DNA from: Minisyncoccota bacterium | GTDB taxonomy: Bacteria > Patescibacteriota > Minisyncoccia > Phycocordibacterales > UBA6065 | Length of the DNA: 64,000 bases | Direction: 5' to 3' | Assembly (NCBI GenBank): GCA_041661645.1 | Contig: JBAZUA010000001.1 | Span: 45,618-109,617 of the forward strand | Part shown: piece by piece, positions 3,349-46,763 of the stretch | Layout: the number at the start of each line of letters is the position of its first letter | Position numbering within the stretch: the stretch's first letter is position 1 | Translations under genes and position numbers: made by a program | The notes under the pieces: model-generated | Told to the model about the DNA's origin: nothing | Database searches by the model: none | The model's input: the letters and a program-made list of their open reading frames with translations, nothing else

Positions 3349-4344
3349 TTGGCTATCAAACCCATGTCACAGCCACGAAAAATCCTCCTCTCGGGCGTAA
3401 GGCCCACTGGTCGCCCCCATATCGGAAACTATTTCGGCGCGATGAAGCAGTTCGTCGACCTCCTGAACACCGGCAACTACGAGTGCTACTTCATGATCGC
3501 CGACTATCACGCCCTGAACTTCATACAGAACAAGGCCGAGATGCAGACGAACATCATCGACCTCGCCCTCGACTATATCGCCATCGGCCTCGACCCAAAG
3601 AAGTCCGTGCTGTTCAAGCAGTCTGACGTCTCCGCCCACACCGAGCTCGCCTGGATATTCGACAGCATCACCACCATGCCATATCTCATGCGCGCGAACG
3701 CCTTCAAGGATGCGGAAGCCAAGAACTCCGAGATAAACGTGGCGACCTTCAACTATCCGATGCTCATGGCGGCAGACATCCTGATATATGACGCGGATAT
3801 AGTTCCCGTGGGCCTCGACCAGAAGCAGCACATCGAGTACACCCGCGACACGGCCCAGAAATTCAACCGCATCTTCGGCGAAACTTTCAAATTGCCAAAA
3901 GAGCTCATCGTCGAGAATGTAAAGACCGTCCCTGGCATCGACGGGCGCAAGATGTCCAAGTCATACGGCAACACCATCGGGCTCTTTGCCACCGACGAAG
4001 AGATAAAGAAGGCCGTGATGTCCATAGTCACCGACTCCGGCAAGAATCCCGACGGAACCCCATCCGTGCCGGTAAACGTTCGTGCCATTCACGAGCTCTT
4101 CCGCGACAAGGCGTATCTCGACGCGCTCTATGCCGAGAAGGCGGGAAAATATAAAGACCTCAAGGAAGCTCTGGCCGCCGACGTTCAGGCGTTCATCAGG
4201 CCGATGCGAGAGCGACGCGACAGGCTCGCACAGAATCGATCAAAGGTAATGAAAATCCTGGCAAAGGGAGGGAAGAAGGCTGCGAAGAAGGCAAACAAGA
4301 CGATGGAGAGGGTGAAGGAGGCGGTTGGCGTGACCCTCGAATAG
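3349..4344 (+). CDS. trpS: tryptophanyl-tRNA synthetase
   Basis: Class I aaRS with HIGH-type motif (GRPHIGNYFGA) and KMSKS; 331-aa length and overall pattern are typical of TrpRS. Confidence 0.9.
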   Translation: MAIKPMSQPRKILLSGVRPTGRPHIGNYFGAMKQFVDLLNTGNYECYFMIADYHALNFIQNKAEMQTNIIDLALDYIAIGLDPKKSVLFKQSDVSAHTELAWIFDSITTMPYLMRANAFKDAEAKNSEINVATFNYPMLMAADILIYDADIVPVGLDQKQHIEYTRDTAQKFNRIFGETFKLPKELIVENVKTVPGIDGRKMSKSYGNTIGLFATDEEIKKAVMSIVTDSGKNPDGTPSVPVNVRAIHELFRDKAYLDALYAEKAGKYKDLKEALAADVQAFIRPMRERRDRLAQNRSKVMKILAKGGKKAAKKANKTMERVKEAVGVTLE

Positions 4345-4380
4345 GCTTTTGTATATACAGTATAGCAAACAGGTTGACGC

Positions 4381-6177
4381 TTGCGCAAGGCTATGGCATT
4401 TTGCTTTACTTATCCCATGAATAACAAAGAAAAAAACTATTCCTCGCTCGACCTCATTCGATCGCTCTGGTCCTTTCTGCGTCCCTACAGGGGAAAATTC
4501 ATCCTCGGAACCCTGCTTCGCATCATCGGCGAGATCACCTGGCTCTATCCGGCCTACGCCCTCGGGTCGATAGCGACGTTCTTTGTCGGATATCACATAG
4601 GCGATCCTCTTGGTCCTTTCTGGCAGATCATCGGTCTTCTGGGTATCGCGTCCTTGGTCTATTTCATAACGTCCTACTTCGGCAACCTCCTGGGCTTCAG
4701 GACCGCCCTCAGGACATCCATCGATTCGCAGCTTATCGCCATCAAACACATCCTCAAGCTCGACATCGGCTGGCACGAGACGGAGAACACCGGAAACAAG
4801 GTGAAGAAGATAGACCGCGGGAGCAACGCGGTCAACATGCTCCTCAGGGCGTGGTTCTCCCCGATGATCGGTATAGTCGTCAGCCTCGTCGGAGTCACCC
4901 TCATAATATCCCGCTTCGACAAGATGATCTCGTTTCTGACGCTGGTGTTCCTCGTGGCCTATTTCCTAGTCTCCTTCTTCTTCACGAAAAACGCGGTCAA
5001 GGTCCAGCGAGCCGAGAACATAAAGGACGAGAACCTATCCGGGCTCATATTTGAATCGGTCAACAATGTCCGAAGCGCCAAGGTGATGTCGATGATTCCA
5101 CCCCTCACGGAGATGATACGGGGGATGAGTTCGGAACTCTATAGCCTTGCTCGTATGAGGGTGTTCTGGTATCAGTCGGGCGGTGCCGTAAAGAATCTCA
5201 CGGGACAGGCCTTTCGCCTGGCCATCATGGCATACATAGGCTGGGGCATCATGCAGGGATGGTATGGCGTCGGCTTCATGGTCCTCTTCTACAGCTACTT
5301 CTCGAGCGTCCAGTCAGCGGTAGGCCAGCTGGCCGAAAGCTCCCAGGACTTCGCCATACGAAAGACCCAGGTGGGCAGGATGACGGACCTCCTCAAGGAG
5401 AAGCCCTCGACGGACATCGAGGATGGCAAGCTGCGCTTCCCCGACGGATGGAAGATGATCGAGGTAAAGAACGTGTCCTTCGCCTACGGGGACAAGAAAA
5501 TCCTCGACAACGTCACCTTCACCATATCCCGCGGCGAGAAGATAGGAATCGTCGGGCTCTCCGGTGCCGGCAAATCGACGCTCTTCAAGCTGTTGCTCAA
5601 GGAGCGCGAGAATTACGAGGGGGAGATCCTGGTCGACGGCATCCCGCTCAGGTCAATCAGCAAGAACGACTACTTCAGGCACGCGGCCGTCGTCCTTCAG
5701 GAGACCGAGGTGTTCAACTTCACCCTTCGCGACAACGTGACGATATCGAATCACGAGAAGGCACTTGATGACAGGCTCTTCGAGAGGGCGATCGAGATAG
5801 CGCACGTCGCGGAATTCGCCAAGGCGCTGCCGCAGGGGACGAACACCCAGATCGGAGAGAAAGGCGTTAAGCTGTCAGGGGGCGAGAAGCAGCGCGTCGG
5901 CGTCGCCCGCGCCATATTCAAGGAGCCCGAGCTGCTCCTTCTCGACGAGGCAACCTCGCATCTCGACATCGAATCCGAGGAGAAGATACAGGACTCGCTC
6001 CATCAGTTCTTCCAGAACGTCACGGCGGTCGTCATCGCCCATCGCCTCACCACAATAAGGGAAATGGACAAGATACTGGTCATCGAGGGAGGAAAGATCA
6101 TCGAGCAGGGAAGCTTCGCCGAACTACAGGCAAGCAAAGGCAGGTTCTACGGCCTCTGGGAAAAGCAGAAGCTCTAG
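4381..6177 (+). CDS. ABC exporter, fused permease + ATP-binding protein (MsbA/MdlB-like)
   Basis: Six-TM N-terminal half; Walker A GLSGAGKST, signature LSGGEKQR, Walker B LLLLDEATS. Confidence 0.85.
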   Translation: MRKAMAFCFTYPMNNKEKNYSSLDLIRSLWSFLRPYRGKFILGTLLRIIGEITWLYPAYALGSIATFFVGYHIGDPLGPFWQIIGLLGIASLVYFITSYFGNLLGFRTALRTSIDSQLIAIKHILKLDIGWHETENTGNKVKKIDRGSNAVNMLLRAWFSPMIGIVVSLVGVTLIISRFDKMISFLTLVFLVAYFLVSFFFTKNAVKVQRAENIKDENLSGLIFESVNNVRSAKVMSMIPPLTEMIRGMSSELYSLARMRVFWYQSGGAVKNLTGQAFRLAIMAYIGWGIMQGWYGVGFMVLFYSYFSSVQSAVGQLAESSQDFAIRKTQVGRMTDLLKEKPSTDIEDGKLRFPDGWKMIEVKNVSFAYGDKKILDNVTFTISRGEKIGIVGLSGAGKSTLFKLLLKERENYEGEILVDGIPLRSISKNDYFRHAAVVLQETEVFNFTLRDNVTISNHEKALDDRLFERAIEIAHVAEFAKALPQGTNTQIGEKGVKLSGGEKQRVGVARAIFKEPELLLLDEATSHLDIESEEKIQDSLHQFFQNVTAVVIAHRLTTIREMDKILVIEGGKIIEQGSFAELQASKGRFYGLWEKQKL

Positions 6178-6184
6178 TTTGCAG

Positions 6185-6431
6185 GGGTCGATTTTATGCG
6201 CTAGAGTATCCTCATACCACTGACCCGGCTGACACCGGCGAGGTAGGGGAAGGAAATCGCTCGAAACCCTTATGGTTCAAGGCGAAAGTAGAATCTCCCG
6301 GAACCCGCCCGATGCGGCAAACAAAGAGTGGGCCATGCAAAAAACGATGGCCCGAAAACAGGGTGGCACCGCGACAAAGTCGCCCCTGCGAATTTATCAG
6401 CCGATGAATTTGGAGGGGCGACTTTTATTTT
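6185..6431 (+). promoter_or_regulatory. T-box riboswitch leader (tRNA-sensing transcription attenuator) upstream of aspS
   Basis: Stem III-like hairpin GGGCCAT…ATGGCCC (6330-6353). T-box sequence AGGGTGGCACCGCG at 6360-6373 forms the canonical antiterminator (AGGG/CCCT helix, 7-nt UGGCACC bulge, GCG/CGC helix). Overlapping terminator hairpin GTCGCCCCT…AGGGGCGAC + TTTTATTTT (6379-6431). Confidence 0.7.
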
Positions 6432-6456
6432 CCCCCGAATCTCACAAGCCACACGC

Positions 6457-6792
6457 ATGACAACACTAGAATCACCGGAGCCGCAGGAGAAGGACAGTCA
6501 CCTCGACGCGTTCAATCATTGCCCGTGCCCACAAGGTCCGATGGACATCGCCCGCGAGGAAGAGTACATACACTTCACGAACGAGCTCCAGGGAATGCTC
6601 GCCCTGCGCAAGTTCGGCAAGGATCCCGAGACCGAGAGATTCGCGAAATGGGTGGAGATGTTCTCGGTGCGGTTCAGGGACAATTTCGAGCGTACGATAC
6701 GGGAAAATCCCCTCTATTTTGACGGAATAGCGACCATTGGTGACATAGGCGAGGAGAAGTGGGCTGATCTCGAGGAAAAGATATACAACTAA
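6457..6792 (+). CDS. hypothetical protein (111 aa) between the T-box leader and aspS
   Basis: ORF MTTLESPEPQEKDSH… with a protein-like charged/helical composition; no SD; no recognisable domain. Confidence 0.35.
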   Translation: MTTLESPEPQEKDSHLDAFNHCPCPQGPMDIAREEEYIHFTNELQGMLALRKFGKDPETERFAKWVEMFSVRFRDNFERTIRENPLYFDGIATIGDIGEEKWADLEEKIYN

Positions 6793-6800
6793 CAAAAACC

Positions 6801-8201
6801 ATGGAACGAACATACATAAAAGACCTTGAATCAAAGATGGGGCAGGAAGTGACCATCGCGGGATGGATAGACATTAGGCGCGACCAGGGTAAGCTCATAT
6901 TCATCGACTTCCGCGACATGACGGGATACGTGCAGGGCGTGGTGCTTCCAAACGCCAAGGACGCACAGGCCGTTGCATCAACCGTCCGATCTGAATGGGT
7001 CGTCGAGGTCAAGGGCAAGGTAAACCCTCGCCCCGAGAAGAACGTCCAGAAGGACAAGCAGAACGGCATGATCGAGCTGGAAATTCTCGGCATTACGGTG
7101 CTGAACGAGGCACAGACTCCGCCGATCGACGTACGCTCTGACGGCAGGGAGATCGGCGAGGAGAGCCGCCTGACCTATCGATACCTCGACCTGCGCAGGC
7201 CCCGCATGCAGAAGAACATACGAAACCGCCACGCGGTGAACATGTTCATCAGGAACTGGCTGACCAAGGAGGGCTTCGCCGAGATCGAGACCCCGATGCT
7301 CACCAAATCTACCCCTGAGGGATCCCGAGACTATCTCGTCCCATCCCGCATCGAGAACGGCAAGTTCTATGCGCTCCCTCAGTCACCCCAACAGTACAAA
7401 CAACTCCTCATGTCGGCAGGCTTCGAGAAGTACTTCCAGATCGCCCGATGCCTCCGCGACGAGGACTCTCGCGGCGACCGACAGCCTGAGTTCACCCAGC
7501 TCGACATGGAGATGAGCTTCGTAGCACAGGAGGACGTCATGGCCCTGAACGAGAGACTCTTAATTGAAATGGTTCAGACCGTGGCCCCGCACAAGAAGAT
7601 CCAGCAGATTCCCTTTCCCCGACTCAGCTACAAGGAGGCGATGGAGAAATACCAGAGCGACAAACCGGACATCAGGAACGACAAAAACGATCCCGACCTT
7701 CTCGCCTTCGCCTGGGTCATAGATTTTCCACAGTTTGAGAAGACTGATAAGGGTGGATGGACCTTCAGTCACAATCCATTCTCGGCGCCAAAGCCAGAGC
7801 ACGTCGACATGCTCCTCAAAAAGGAGAATATCGGTGACATAGTCGCCACCCAGTACGACATCACCCTCAACGGATTCGAAATCGGCGGGGGTGGCATCCG
7901 AAACCACAAGCCCGAGATGCTCGAGAAGGTGTTCGAAATCATGGGTCATTCCCCAGAGAAGATAAAGGAAAACTTTGGGCACATGCTCGATGCCTTCTCC
8001 TTTGGCACCCCTCCGCACGGCGGCATCGCCTGGGGCATCGACCGCGTCATGGCGATACTCGAGAACGAGCCGAACATACGCGAGGTCATCGCCTTCGCCA
8101 AGACGGGAGAGGGGAGGGACCTCATGATGAAGACCCCGTCAGAGGTATCGACCGAGCAGCTCATCGAGCTCGGCATCAGCGTGAAGAAGGCCGGAAAATA
8201 G
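6801..8201 (+). CDS. aspS: aspartyl-tRNA synthetase, short archaeal/eukaryal-type (no GAD insertion)
   Basis: N-terminal OB anticodon-binding domain, class II motifs (…FQIARCLRDEDSRGDRQPEFTQLDMEMSF…GGGIRNH…GIDRV); 466 aa is too short for a bacterial-type AspRS carrying a GAD domain. Confidence 0.9.
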   Translation: MERTYIKDLESKMGQEVTIAGWIDIRRDQGKLIFIDFRDMTGYVQGVVLPNAKDAQAVASTVRSEWVVEVKGKVNPRPEKNVQKDKQNGMIELEILGITVLNEAQTPPIDVRSDGREIGEESRLTYRYLDLRRPRMQKNIRNRHAVNMFIRNWLTKEGFAEIETPMLTKSTPEGSRDYLVPSRIENGKFYALPQSPQQYKQLLMSAGFEKYFQIARCLRDEDSRGDRQPEFTQLDMEMSFVAQEDVMALNERLLIEMVQTVAPHKKIQQIPFPRLSYKEAMEKYQSDKPDIRNDKNDPDLLAFAWVIDFPQFEKTDKGGWTFSHNPFSAPKPEHVDMLLKKENIGDIVATQYDITLNGFEIGGGGIRNHKPEMLEKVFEIMGHSPEKIKENFGHMLDAFSFGTPPHGGIAWGIDRVMAILENEPNIREVIAFAKTGEGRDLMMKTPSEVSTEQLIELGISVKKAGK

Positions 8202-8258: not shown

Positions 8259-8436
8259 GTACTATCAGGAGGGACGGGTTACAAACACCCTCCCACAGCT
8301 CCTTATGAGGCACGGACCTATATGCCGAAGCCTCGAGCCCGCGGTCCTCGAGCGCCTATATGGCCTCGGCCCAAGCGAGCAGGTATTCATGGGGATCAGA
8401 TGACTGTCGGGCATAGCCTGACCATCGGAAACCTCG

Positions 8437-8481
8437 GTGCCCGCGCCCACACTTGAGGCGCGGGCACCTTTTATCATTTTG
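8437..8481 (+). terminator. rho-independent terminator inside a long intergenic region
   Basis: GGTGCCCGCGCC-CACACTTGA-GGCGCGGGCACC hairpin followed by TTTTATCATTTT. Confidence 0.55.
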
Positions 8482-8495
8482 CCTCGCCAATACCC

Positions 8496-8523
8496 TTGAC
8501 GGATACAACCCATGTGCTATCCT
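8496..8523 (+). promoter_or_regulatory. candidate sigma70-type promoter (TTGACG-16 nt-TATCCT)
   Basis: -35/-10-like hexamers in the spacer upstream of scpA; followed by ~300 nt rich in hairpins ending in a terminator-like hairpin (~8792-8830). Confidence 0.3.
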
Positions 8524-8889
8524 TTATGTGGGTCGAGGATAGTTTTTCCTCCCCCACAGCTCTTTGACGGGGCACACAAACATCAGGTAGGGAGGATTCG
8601 TTCTCCCTACAAGGCACTGTATTCCCTCAAACTCGCGTTTCCATGATACACATTTGGCTTCGGCCAACGCGATCGGAATTGTTCTTTGTCTTGTGGCCGT
8701 CTGGATTTTTTTCCGCGCCCACGCCATCTCGGGTCTCCCTTTCGGAAACCCATCTGACGCATCCCTCACCAGATCGTCACCCACCCCTTTAAGCCGCTTC
8801 CTCATCTTTTTTGAGAAGCGGCTTTTCTATTGCCCGATGCGCCCGGTCCCGATGTGCTAAAATAGGCTCGCAAGCCAAAATAAACCCAC

Positions 8890-9609
8890 ATGTCATTCAC
8901 CGTAAAGCAGAACAAGTTCGAGGGCCCTCTCGACCTCCTCCTCGACCTCATCGAGAGGAGGAAGCTTTTCGTGAACGATGTCTCCCTGGCACAGGTTGCC
9001 GACGACTATATCGCCTATGTCCGAAATCTCGCGGACTTTCCCGTGGCAGACAGCGCCCATTTCGTCCTCGTCGCCTCGACGCTCCTCCTCATCAAATCCA
9101 AATCACTCCTGCCGACACTCAACCTGACCGTCGAGGAAGAGGCGAGCGTCAAGGACCTGGAGCATCGCCTGAAGATGTACGAGAAGATTCGCGAGGCGAG
9201 CGTAGGCGTGAAGGCCCTCTTTGGGGCGCGGCTCCTCTTCGCCCGAAGCGAGCGAGCCCTCGCTCCCACCTTCTCGCCCGATGCCGACATGACCGTCGGG
9301 AACCTCTTCGCCGCCATCGGCCGCGTCCTGGCCCATCTCCCGAAGAAGGAGTTCCTGCCAAAGGTGATCATCGACAAGGTCATGTCCCTCGAGGAGATGA
9401 TCGGCAACCTGACCGAGCGCATCGGCTCGGCCCTCAAGATGAGCTTCAGGGAGTTCTCGGGCACGGGTAAGGCCGAGCGCGTCCATGTCATCGTCTCCTT
9501 CCTCGCCATGCTCGAGCTGGTCAAGCAGGGCGTCATACAAGTGAGCCAGGAGAGGCATTTCGACGACATACAGATGCAGACCGAGAGCCTCGACGTGCCG
9601 CGATATTAA
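8890..9609 (+). CDS. scpA: segregation and condensation protein A
   Basis: N-terminus MSFTVKQNKFEGPLDLLLDLIERRKL… typical of ScpA; immediately followed by scpB. Confidence 0.85.
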   Translation: MSFTVKQNKFEGPLDLLLDLIERRKLFVNDVSLAQVADDYIAYVRNLADFPVADSAHFVLVASTLLLIKSKSLLPTLNLTVEEEASVKDLEHRLKMYEKIREASVGVKALFGARLLFARSERALAPTFSPDADMTVGNLFAAIGRVLAHLPKKEFLPKVIIDKVMSLEEMIGNLTERIGSALKMSFREFSGTGKAERVHVIVSFLAMLELVKQGVIQVSQERHFDDIQMQTESLDVPRY

Positions 9610-9675
9610 GAAGCCGATACCGGGAACACCCTGGATACTAGAACTTTATTCGCATTAGGCTATACTGGAAACACC

Positions 9676-10224
9676 ATGAATCCGCTCAGCCTGGAATCAC
9701 AGCTCGAAGCGCTCCTGTTCTGGAAAGGGGAGCCGATGTCGACCAAGAAGATCGAGGCGGCTTTGGGCTGCACGGCCGATGAGCTGGCCGCGTCCACGAC
9801 CGCCCTTGAGGCCAATCTGGGTGGCCGCGGCCTCCGCATCATGCGCCACGAGGGCGAGCTTGAGCTGCGCACCGCTCCCGAGGCGAGCGACCTCATCACG
9901 AAATTGACCAAGGAGGAGCTCATGCGAGACCTCGGCAAGGCCGGCCTCGAGACCCTCTCCATCATTTTATACAAGGGGCCCGTCAAGCGATCCGAGATCG
10001 ACTACATACGCGGGGTGAACTCGTCCTTCATCGTCCGAAACCTGCTCGTCCGCGGACTGGTCGAGCGCATGGCCGAGAAGGAGGGCGACAAGAGGGGATT
10101 CCTCTATGGCCCAACCCTCGACCTGCTCGCCCACATGGGCGTGGCAAAGAGGGAAGACCTCCCCGATTACGAGAAGACCCGCGCCGAGCTCGAGGCATTT
10201 TCAGCAACAAGCGATGAAGCCTAG
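9676..10224 (+). CDS. scpB: segregation and condensation protein B
   Basis: Tandem winged-helix pattern (LEALLFWKGEPMS…; …ILYKGPVKRSEIDYIRGV…) typical of ScpB. Confidence 0.85.
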   Translation: MNPLSLESQLEALLFWKGEPMSTKKIEAALGCTADELAASTTALEANLGGRGLRIMRHEGELELRTAPEASDLITKLTKEELMRDLGKAGLETLSIILYKGPVKRSEIDYIRGVNSSFIVRNLLVRGLVERMAEKEGDKRGFLYGPTLDLLAHMGVAKREDLPDYEKTRAELEAFSATSDEA

Positions 10225-32072: not shown

Positions 32073-32266
32073 GCAGCTATCGAAACCTCAGGGACAGAGA
32101 GATCGAGATTATCCCAGGAAACCCCGGAGAGCCGGTATTCGCGTCATGTACCGAACGAGACAGGTTCTGGGAGCGTTTCTACGAGAAGGTCCAGCCAGAG
32201 CTTGACGAGCTAGCTCGAAAGCGAGCGTTGTGCAATCCCCCGTTCCCACTCATTCGTCATACCTAG
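32069..32266 (+). CDS. small hypothetical protein (65 aa), ATGA-coupled to the upstream gene
   Basis: ATG 32069 overlaps the TGA of the 31527 ORF; followed by two consecutive terminators. Confidence 0.3.
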   Translation: MSSYRNLRDREIEIIPGNPGEPVFASCTERDRFWERFYEKVQPELDELARKRALCNPPFPLIRHT

Positions 32267-32271
32267 AAACA

Positions 32272-32370
32272 AAGGCCCCGCAATCTTGCGGGGCCTCTTT
32301 TATTTCCAAGAGTTCTTCATTAAAAAAACAAAGACGACGGGAGAATAAATTCTCCCGTCGTTTTTTTTGA
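32272..32370. terminator. two tandem rho-independent terminators
   Basis: AGGCCCCGCAA…TTGCGGGGCCT + CTTTTATTT (32272-32305), then ACGACGGGAGA…TCTCCCGTCGT + TTTTTTTT (32330-32370). Confidence 0.6.
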
Positions 32371-46459: not shown

Positions 46460-46720
46460 ATGCTGGAAATCCGATACGCGCCAAGCTTCGTGCGCATGTA
46501 CGCAAGACTCCCTGCCAGCCTCAAATCAGAGATTAAAGAGAAAATCTCGACATTCAGGGACAAGGGCAATCACGATGCGCTCAAGGTTCACAAGCTCAAA
46601 GGAAACCTTGAAAACACCTTTTCCTTTTCAGTCAATTATAAAATCAGGGTCATCTTCGAATACGAGGACAAGAAATCCGTCAACCTGCTTTTGGTCGGCG
46701 GACACGACAACGTATATTAA
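46460..46720 (+). CDS. RelE/ParE-family type II toxin candidate
   Basis: MLEIRYAPSFVRMYARLPASLKSEIKEKI…YKIRVIFEYEDKKSVNLLLVGGHDNVY fits the RelE/ParE fold pattern; hairpin terminator at 46721-46748. Confidence 0.6.
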   Translation: MLEIRYAPSFVRMYARLPASLKSEIKEKISTFRDKGNHDALKVHKLKGNLENTFSFSVNYKIRVIFEYEDKKSVNLLLVGGHDNVY

Positions 46721-46763
46721 AAAATCCCCGCACATGCGGGGATTTTTTATATCTTGGATTGTC

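Follow-up and report, generated by a model that had tools for sequence, protein, structure and literature searches.

Class I transcriptional T-boxes (RF00230), such as those of Bacillus subtilis tyrS and glyQS, carry a Stem I with an AG bulge and a distal loop, which build a platform of interdigitated T-loops for docking the elbow of the tRNA, and their specifier lies in an internal loop that has an S-turn of its own. T-boxes with an ultrashort Stem I were reportedly described by Sherwood, Grundy and Henkin in 2015 for ileS, which is said to be the T-box-regulated gene in Actinobacteria. Here we analyse the leader of aspS, the aspartyl-tRNA synthetase (AspRS) gene, in a 64-kb stretch of DNA from a Minisyncoccota bacterium (contig JBAZUA010000001.1; the whole stretch is called the window hereafter). 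This leader spans window positions 6216-6431 on the + strand and, judging by its sequence, it is very probably a tRNA-Asp-sensing T-box that controls by transcription attenuation an operon of two genes, namely a gene of 111 amino acids (aa) and aspS.

In the literature that we examined, transcriptional T-boxes have a long Stem I that docks the elbow, and a short or ultrashort Stem I is a feature of translational T-boxes, mostly those of actinobacterial ileS (PMC7583486, PMC7778990, PMC11297988). The ileS T-box-tRNA complexes have been solved (structures 6UFG and 6UFM; PMC7583486). In them a string of purines of the S-turn acts as a clamp on the codon-anticodon duplex, whose position is set by the K-turn together with the pseudoknot (PMC7583486, PMC11297988), and it is the K-turn, the S-turn of Stem II and the pseudoknot that permit tRNA binding with a short Stem I (PMC7583486). 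An Asn-specific T-box has also been attributed to the operon of the non-discriminating AspRS (ND-AspRS) and GatCAB in Clostridium acetobutylicum (Saad et al. 2012, as cited in PMC4206432).

The window leader has features of both classes. It shares with class I T-boxes the exact T-box sequence of 14 nucleotides (nt), the 7-nt UGGNACC bulge, an antiterminator that competes with an intrinsic terminator, the K-turn at the base of Stem I, a specifier followed by a purine, an S-turn in Stem II, the IIA/B pseudoknot, Stem III and an aminoacyl-tRNA synthetase gene that matches the codon. However, its Stem I has neither AG bulge nor distal loop and it presents the specifier in a 6-nt terminal loop. With the actinobacterial ileS T-boxes (class II, ultrashort Stem I) it shares the K-turn, the lack of an elbow platform, the S-turn of Stem II and the IIA/B pseudoknot. 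Nevertheless, the ileS T-boxes act by sequestration of the Shine-Dalgarno (SD) sequence, read AUC and precede ileS, whereas the window leader has a terminator with a U-tract, reads GAC (its relatives read GAC or AAC) and precedes aspS. The elements of the leader, all of them on the + strand, are the following (bp, base pairs):

6216-6244, +, ultrashort Stem I (from the Rfam alignment; the module is present in the leaders of all relatives and its helices covary)
6216-6218 / 6242-6244, +, Stem I base helix, ACC / GGU
6219-6223 with 6240-6241, +, K-turn recognised by its sequence pattern: bulge ACU (6219-6221) and tandem GA (6222-6223) opposite GA (6240-6241)
6225-6228 / 6235-6238, +, Stem I upper helix, CCGG / CCGG, 4 bp
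6229-6234, +, Stem I terminal loop CUGACA, 6 nt
6231-6233, +, specifier GAC (Asp), followed by the conserved purine A6234
6246-6298, +, Stem II with S-turn, aligned to the Rfam Stem II (GAAa...AGUA)
6246-6250 / 6294-6298, +, Stem II outer helix, GGGGA / UCUCC
6251-6256 / 6286-6293, +, Stem II internal loop, AGGAAA / AAGUAGAA
6257-6260 / 6282-6285, +, Stem II inner helix, UCGC / GCGA, with a distal extension at 6261-6281
6299-6317, +, Stem IIA/B H-type pseudoknot, CGG 6299-6301 / CCG 6309-6311 and CCGC 6305-6308 / GCGG 6314-6317
6330-6336 / 6347-6353, +, Stem III, GGGCCAU / AUGGCCC with a 10-nt loop (from sequence, folding and Rfam)
6354-6359, +, purine-rich linker GAAAAC, directly after Stem III
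6360-6373, +, T-box sequence AGGGUGGCACCGCG (DNA AGGGTGGCACCGCG)
6360-6387, +, antiterminator, composed of helix A1, bulge and helix A2 (from Rfam and covariation)
6360-6363 / 6384-6387, +, helix A1, AGGG / CCCU
6364-6370, +, antiterminator bulge UGGCACC, 7 nt, whose UGGC is complementary to the tRNA 3' GCCA
6371-6375 / 6379-6383, +, helix A2, GCGAC / GUCGC
6379-6422, +, intrinsic terminator GTCGCCCCT...AGGGGCGAC, with a 9-bp and a 10-bp helix and a 1x1 internal loop between them
6423-6431, +, U-tract UUUUAUUUU (DNA TTTTATTTT)

The leader lies in a spacer of 279 nt, which separates the stop of an ABC exporter gene (6177) from the start of the open reading frame (ORF) that follows (6457). In a permissive Rfam search RF00230 aligned end to end to positions 6211-6390 with 40.6 bits (E = 1.8e-7 for the region alone, 1.5e-5 when the whole window is taken), and no other part of the window matched a T-box. 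The gathering score of RF00230 is 93 bits, and at the gathering threshold no match of any Rfam family was found in the whole window. Thus, the cmsearch check proposed with the original prediction, which had been made from the same letters, is negative at its default (gathering) threshold and positive, with those 40.6 bits, in the permissive mode. The score stays below the gathering score because 74 Stem I positions of the model are replaced by only 4 nt in the alignment. As a whole, the leader folds more stably than shuffled sequences (z = -3.3). The claim that a T-box leader precedes aspS is therefore borne out by the full-length match to RF00230 and by the presence of all the elements listed in that prediction. 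Its description as canonical had to be abandoned, since the distal helix, the AG bulge and the distal loop are all missing from Stem I and the specifier is in a terminal loop. Regarding the other three aminoacyl-tRNA synthetase genes of the window (trpS, gltX and cysS), neither Rfam (E <= 1) nor the family-specific model described below found a T-box on them, as had been predicted.

Stem III, the T-box sequence, the antiterminator and the terminator all look canonical, and from them alone one could think of a T-box as in Firmicutes, whose Stem I has its full length and which captures the tRNA through both anticodon and elbow. However, Stem I is only 29 nt long (6216-6244), with 74 Rfam positions deleted and with Stem II starting already at 6246. 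The AG bulge and the distal loop that make up the tRNA-elbow platform are absent, as is an internal Specifier Loop, and every relative has the same mini-hairpin. A full-length Stem I is already refuted by the sequence and we give practically no credit to this explanation. What remains at the base of Stem I is a predicted K-turn, with a 3-nt bulge and tandem GA/GA between covarying helices, which is aligned to the K-turn of Rfam.

In order to find relatives of the leader, we took the AspRS as query, searched one genome of each GTDB species and kept 80 loci, nearly all of them from Patescibacteria/Paceibacterota and all of them encoding a short aspS (58-86% identity). In roughly 20 of the 80 loci a motif scan detected a T-box core, around 80-170 nt upstream of aspS and in each case with a mini Stem I. 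When 12 full-length leaders were aligned with plain MAFFT, RNAalifold recovered the helices of both Stem I and Stem II as well as those of the antiterminator, and the resulting structure had compensatory double changes in 18 of its 25 pairs. A covariance model (R1) was built from this alignment and searched against the window and 82 loci (1.31 Mb). The window leader obtained 118.7 bits (E = 6e-25) and another 24 leaders were found, which belong to 22 of the 80 aspS loci and to the short contigs L001 and L002; all 24 lie directly upstream of either aspS itself or an operon in which it is included. In the R1 alignment 92.9% of the cells are paired, against 69.5% when the partners are shuffled and 34-46% when they are slid by 1-3 columns. 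Moreover, both sides changed in 23 of the 25 pairs, and none of 500 shuffles reached any of the observed measures. The independent RNAalifold result and the variation in every helix argue that the covariation signal is real. With RF00230 the family members tested reached 30-39 bits and two of them were not reported; these scores are under 93 bits or there is no match, and therefore standard annotation would miss the family.

Three candidates were discarded. One R1 match on the minus strand of L033 (3758-3862; its loop, UUGCCA, would read Ala) is inside a 262-aa ORF and another one in L055 is inside aspS, so both of these weak matches were taken as spurious, and a second T-box-like motif of the window, on the minus strand near 58929, had no support from Rfam or R1 and was attributed to chance.

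The low Rfam score, the reduced genomes of the Candidate Phyla Radiation (CPR) and the many related species without the leader would also agree with a decaying relic, unresponsive to tRNA, so that the expression of aspS would depend on leaky read-through or on a different promoter. But 22 species representatives keep the truncated architecture and every helix shows compensatory changes, the codon is confined to the two tRNAs that a non-discriminating AspRS would charge and the T-box sequence is exact. A relic would not retain covariation, nor would a strong terminator stay intact before a gene that is essential, and we consider this explanation very unlikely.

As for the specifier, the original prediction had placed a hairpin CCGG-CTGACA-CCGG at 6226-6241; the hairpin exists, although its correct position is 6225-6238. 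In the relatives the upper helix takes the forms CCGG/CCGG, GUGG/CCAC, AGCC/GGCU, UCGA/UCGA, GCUG/CAGC, GGUAG/CUACU and CCGA/UCGG, and the loop holds GACA or AACA in every leader. Actually, ACA is invariant and the first base of the codon is only G or A, in agreement with the predicted GAC (Asp) specifier followed by A. GAC is found in the window and in L005, L007, L011, L012, L013, L024, L026, L031, L033, L038, L042, L044 and L064, and AAC (Asn) in eight leaders (L004, L014, L025, L039, L062, L063, L067 and L073). The register NAC-A is the only one that leaves the conserved purine after the codon. On these sequences the loop triplet is, as predicted, the specifier codon, and it is matched to the regulated gene.

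In one of the AAC cases, L004, the first gene after the leader (8418-8581) encodes a non-discriminating AspRS, namely an archaeal-type aspartate--tRNA(Asn) ligase (8655-9962; 481 bits with NF003483, whose cutoff is 353), and a bacterial-type aspS comes next. The other seven AAC leaders directly precede a bacterial-type aspS, which suggests that the enzyme behind them charges tRNA-Asn too. The T-box of C. acetobutylicum reads AAC in front of an AspRS gene, like these eight relatives, whereas the window leader reads GAC. That leader, the one of Saad et al. 2012, is said to have the standard long Stem I and to come from a Firmicute. A single G/A change in the codon would retarget the leader between tRNA-Asp and tRNA-Asn in the relatives, and both tRNAs would be substrates of the window-type AspRS if this enzyme is non-discriminating.

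An effector other than tRNA-Asp might be proposed, either because CUG, UGA or ACA is the triplet read in the loop, in a shifted register, or because tRNA-Asn is the one sensed: ACA is invariant, eight relatives read AAC and the AspRS may be non-discriminating. However, only NAC-A has a purine after the codon, and its variable base toggles between Asp and Asn, which fits the downstream enzyme. ACA (Thr) fits neither the gene nor the UGGC bulge, which needs G73, while bacterial tRNA-Thr usually has A73 or U73, and the codon in the window is GAC and not AAC. We see hardly any room for another effector.

Between Stem I and the T-box sequence, Stem II of the relatives contains the near-invariant GAAGAAA and AGUAGA, and both of its helices covary. 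The IIA/B pseudoknot of the window has 7 bp and 4 of 500 shuffles had one as good; Rfam aligns its CGG/CCG pairing to the IIA helix of the model. A pseudoknot of the same topology is found at the same position in around 11 of the 13 long-class leaders, with covarying helices: the first one appears as CAG/CUG or CGGC/GUCG, and the second one as UUUGC/GCAAA, CUGC/GCAG, GAAGC/GCUUC or UAGC/GCUA. Stem III, which had been foreseen as a hairpin GGGCCAT/ATGGCCC and could be located (6330-6336/6347-6353), was found in only some of the relatives.

The T-box sequence at 6360-6373 matches exactly the 14-nt consensus AGGGUGGNACCGCG, so the predicted consensus holds. The antiterminator is likewise present with the AGGG/CCCT helix and the UGGCACC bulge that had been described for it, and its helix A2 reads GCGAC/GTCGC. 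In the relatives helix A1 shows compensatory changes (AGGG/CCCU, AAGG/CCUU, GAGG/CCUC). The terminator and the antiterminator are mutually exclusive, as claimed, because the 5' arm of the former is the 3' arm of the latter (6379-6387 is common to both). The predicted folding energies are -31.1 kcal/mol for the terminator (-38.1 with its extension) and -12.3 kcal/mol for the antiterminator, and this gap is the usual asymmetry of T-boxes. A hairpin (around 17-22 bp) with a U-tract is found at the equivalent place in every related leader, several of these terminators having been assigned by reading the sequences directly, and the distance from terminator to start codon in the relatives is 16-98 nt where measured. 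The expression platform of terminator and antiterminator is thus found in the window, as predicted, and also in all relatives.

These data also bear on whether the leader could act on translation, by sequestering the ribosome-binding site as the actinobacterial ileS T-boxes do, which would be in line with the fact that an ultrashort Stem I is described only for translational T-boxes in the literature examined (PMC7583486, PMC11297988). However, the -31 kcal/mol hairpin directly abuts UUUUAUUUU, the first start codon is 25 nt beyond the end of the U-tract and has no SD sequence, and the alternative helix does not overlap any start region. The hairpin-plus-U-tract design is common to all relatives, and translational control is in our opinion highly improbable here.

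Three details of the platform deserve a mention. The inner helix of the terminator is near-constant (GCGAAUUUAUYA...) in the window (6388-6413) and in L004, L005, L013, L024, L026, L033 and L038, which contrasts with the freely covarying other helices of the same species. In L062 and L073 (~9985-10003) the U-tract of the terminator abuts the aspS start codon (UUAUUUUUAUG). Finally, L007 (9844-9890) and L044 (~787-825) have an extra hairpin of ~40 nt in the terminal loop of the antiterminator, which recalls the lineage-specific 'stem Sa' insertion of staphylococcal glyS T-boxes (PMC9177973).

Regarding the tRNA end, bacterial tRNA-Asp generally has G73. The variable base of the bulge is C in the window, as well as in the leaders of the relatives except a few with U or G, and this C would pair with a G73 discriminator, as had been proposed. 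The only tRNA-Asp found in the flanks of the relatives, a tRNA-Asp(GUC) in L067 (5236-5310), has G73, and a search for tRNA genes in the 64-kb window found none.

Taken as a tRNA-Asp T-box, the leader would work as follows. The GUC anticodon of tRNA-Asp would pair with the GAC specifier. The S-turn, the K-turn and the IIA/B pseudoknot are composed as in the ileS T-boxes, where the clamp offsets the missing elbow contact, and they may do the same here. If the tRNA is uncharged, its free GCCA end would pair with the UGGC of the bulge and stabilise the antiterminator, and RNA polymerase would then read into the 111-aa gene and aspS. If it is charged, the terminator would form and transcription would stop near 6431.

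Several points weigh against this interpretation. The Rfam score of the leader (40.6 bits) is far under the gathering score (93 bits), and an alignment fitted by a model, such as that of R1, is biased towards the structure of the model, which the independent RNAalifold result mitigates. The organism's own tRNA-Asp lies outside the window, so its G73 is taken from L067 and from general knowledge. Furthermore, transcriptional T-boxes are stated to need the distal, elbow-binding motif for fast capture of the tRNA (PMC7583486). A terminator-coupled T-box without elbow contact contradicts this expectation and may need a helper or slow transcription.

Some leaders are shorter still. They lack Stem II and the IIA/B pseudoknot, and some of them lack Stem III as well, whereas the ileS T-boxes keep Stem II. 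In this short class the mini Stem I is ~25-65 nt upstream of the T-box sequence and the whole from Stem I to the antiterminator takes ~90-135 nt. As both the elbow platform and the S-turn clamp are missing, the anticodon and the NCCA end would be the only holds on the tRNA; if functional, these would be the smallest natural T-boxes. The members of the short class are:

L011, 9822-9956, short-class leader
L012, 776-866, short-class leader
L014, 9819-9931, short-class leader
L031, 9843-9932, short-class leader
L038, 9818-9938, short-class leader
L042, 9803-9918, short-class leader
L044, 701-830, short-class leader
L062 and L073, 9851-9961, short-class leaders

Around the window leader there are a putative promoter and the two genes of the operon:

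6179-6184 and 6202-6207, +, promoter-like site from the sequence, -35 TTGCAG and -10 TAGAGT with a 17-nt spacer
6457-6792, +, small protein gene of 111 aa, the first gene under the predicted control of the T-box
6801-8201, +, aspS, 466 aa, bacterial-type AspRS without the GAD insertion domain

With the promoter-like site, transcription would start near 6214, where the foot of Stem I lies, and the terminated transcript is predicted to be ~215 nt long. A sigma-70-like -35/-10 pair ends ~4-9 nt upstream of the leader in most relatives. The site in the window scores under the threshold of a strict scan, and a simple scan for promoters and terminators in 5800-7000, limited to loops of 3-8 nt and uninterrupted stems, found nothing; it misses the terminator because a stem with an internal loop is probably outside those limits.

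In other parts of the window Rfam gave sub-threshold matches to His_leader (36 bits, 32266-32368, + strand) and to Thr_leader and Leu_leader (28-30 bits, 46689-46779, both strands), which are probably hairpin-plus-U-tract terminators rather than attenuators.

The 111-aa ORF had been left as either an unknown co-regulated protein or a non-coding part of the leader, and the non-coding reading does not stand. Compared with its homolog in L001 (83% identity), the ratio of non-synonymous to synonymous substitution rates (dN/dS) is 0.12 and the differences by codon position are 14/6/36; with the homolog in L002 (54%) dN/dS is 0.22. Its GC content at third codon positions (GC3) is 0.70, like that of its neighbours. 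These measures show a genuine gene on which purifying selection acts, and it belongs to a conserved but rare family: a profile search of 1.84 billion representatives found 20 members, all of 105-123 aa, with the motifs CPQGP, F(T/S)NxLQ, S..FR..FE, DP.(Y/F)F.G and TIGDIPE.KW. No Pfam family matched the protein. Its AlphaFold2 (AF2) model is helical, with a predicted local distance difference test (pLDDT) score of 78, and a structural search with this model found no significant neighbour.

The closest members of the family (the window and L001) are between T-box and aspS, while L002 ends before the next gene. The distant members have no T-box nearby and are either directly upstream of proS (L083-L085; the L083 member is at 5001-5342) or directly downstream of trpS (L086 517-876 and probably L087 77-430). 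This recurrent place beside aminoacyl-tRNA synthetase genes is suggestive, although the contexts are few. As for the missing SD sequence before the ORF, an SD-like motif (GGAG/GAGG/AGGA upstream of the first ATG) is found in only ~10 of the 48 long ORFs of the window and aspS itself has none, a crude estimate since the start codons are uncurated. Therefore the genome seems to make little use of SD sequences, and because so few ORFs of the window have one, its lack before the 111-aa ORF is uninformative.

The enzyme encoded by aspS was said to be archaeal-type, and this did not hold: the model of the bacterial aspS (NF001750) gives 629 bits against a cutoff of 443, and the nearest solved structures are AspRS-1 of Thermus thermophilus (1efw, 474 bits) and the AspRS of Escherichia coli (424 bits), whereas the archaeal AspRS structure 1b8a gives 158 bits. 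The archaeal/non-discriminating models stay under their cutoffs (NF003483, 242 against 353; TIGR00458, 216 against 368). NF001750 and both bacterial structures match in two stretches because the GAD insertion domain is absent. The absence of this domain had been correctly stated, and Pfam finds only tRNA_anti-codon and tRNA-synt_2. Thus, the enzyme resembles the bacterial-type AspRS (NF001750/TIGR00459) across the anticodon-binding and catalytic domains, but it has 466 aa instead of ~590 aa and lacks the GAD insertion of ~120 aa. The short form, of 463-470 aa, occurs throughout Paceibacterota. In L083 (5413-6663) we also observed a ProRS of 416 aa that the bacterial-type model matches in two stretches, apparently without the editing insertion; it parallels the GAD-less AspRS and suggests a general loss of domains in the synthetases of Paceibacterota.

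The distribution of the leader is patchy (22 of 80 species), and in some close relatives aspS comes directly after trpS with no leader. This is the arrangement of L003, L018 and L020 (around 10001), and in the window the ABC exporter gene (3349-6177), the T-box and the small ORF are between trpS and aspS, which points to a local rearrangement around a conserved trpS-aspS neighbourhood. A horizontal acquisition of the leader together with the GAD-less aspS had been suggested, but a recent transfer is not supported, as both are widespread in Paceibacterota (80 loci, 22 of them with the leader). In the Paceibacterota DNA scanned no gene other than aspS has a T-box, a parallel to what is said of ileS in Actinobacteria.

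In full-text searches of the openly accessible literature we found no publication in which T-boxes are linked to CPR, Patescibacteria or Parcubacteria. The combination of a short Stem I with an intrinsic terminator departs from the literature that we examined, although an earlier mention or a database entry may exist. In our view there is an even chance that these leaders represent an undescribed T-box class of CPR/Paceibacterota, which terminates transcription co-transcriptionally without elbow contact, whose versions of ~90 nt, the smallest natural T-boxes, hold the tRNA by 3 anticodon and 4 NCCA pairs, and in which a G/A change in the loop retargets the leader between Asp and Asn.

A conserved T-box with a terminator as its platform and without elbow contact would be a counter-example to the generalisation on the long Stem I. 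Translational T-boxes can equilibrate with the tRNA, whereas the transcriptional ones face a short capture window (PMC7583486, PMC11297988, PMC7778990). If the leader works, fast capture would be possible without elbow contact or, alternatively, slow-growing hosts may transcribe or pause in such a way that the kinetic demand is relaxed. The toggle between the Asp and Asn codons would be an example of how a T-box is retargeted from one substrate of a non-discriminating synthetase to the other. Patescibacteria lack tools for inducible expression and riboswitches have been named as promising candidates (PMC11665869), so a compact tRNA-responsive switch could serve as a regulatory part for these bacteria. 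Finally, the range of T-boxes would be extended to the Candidate Phyla Radiation.

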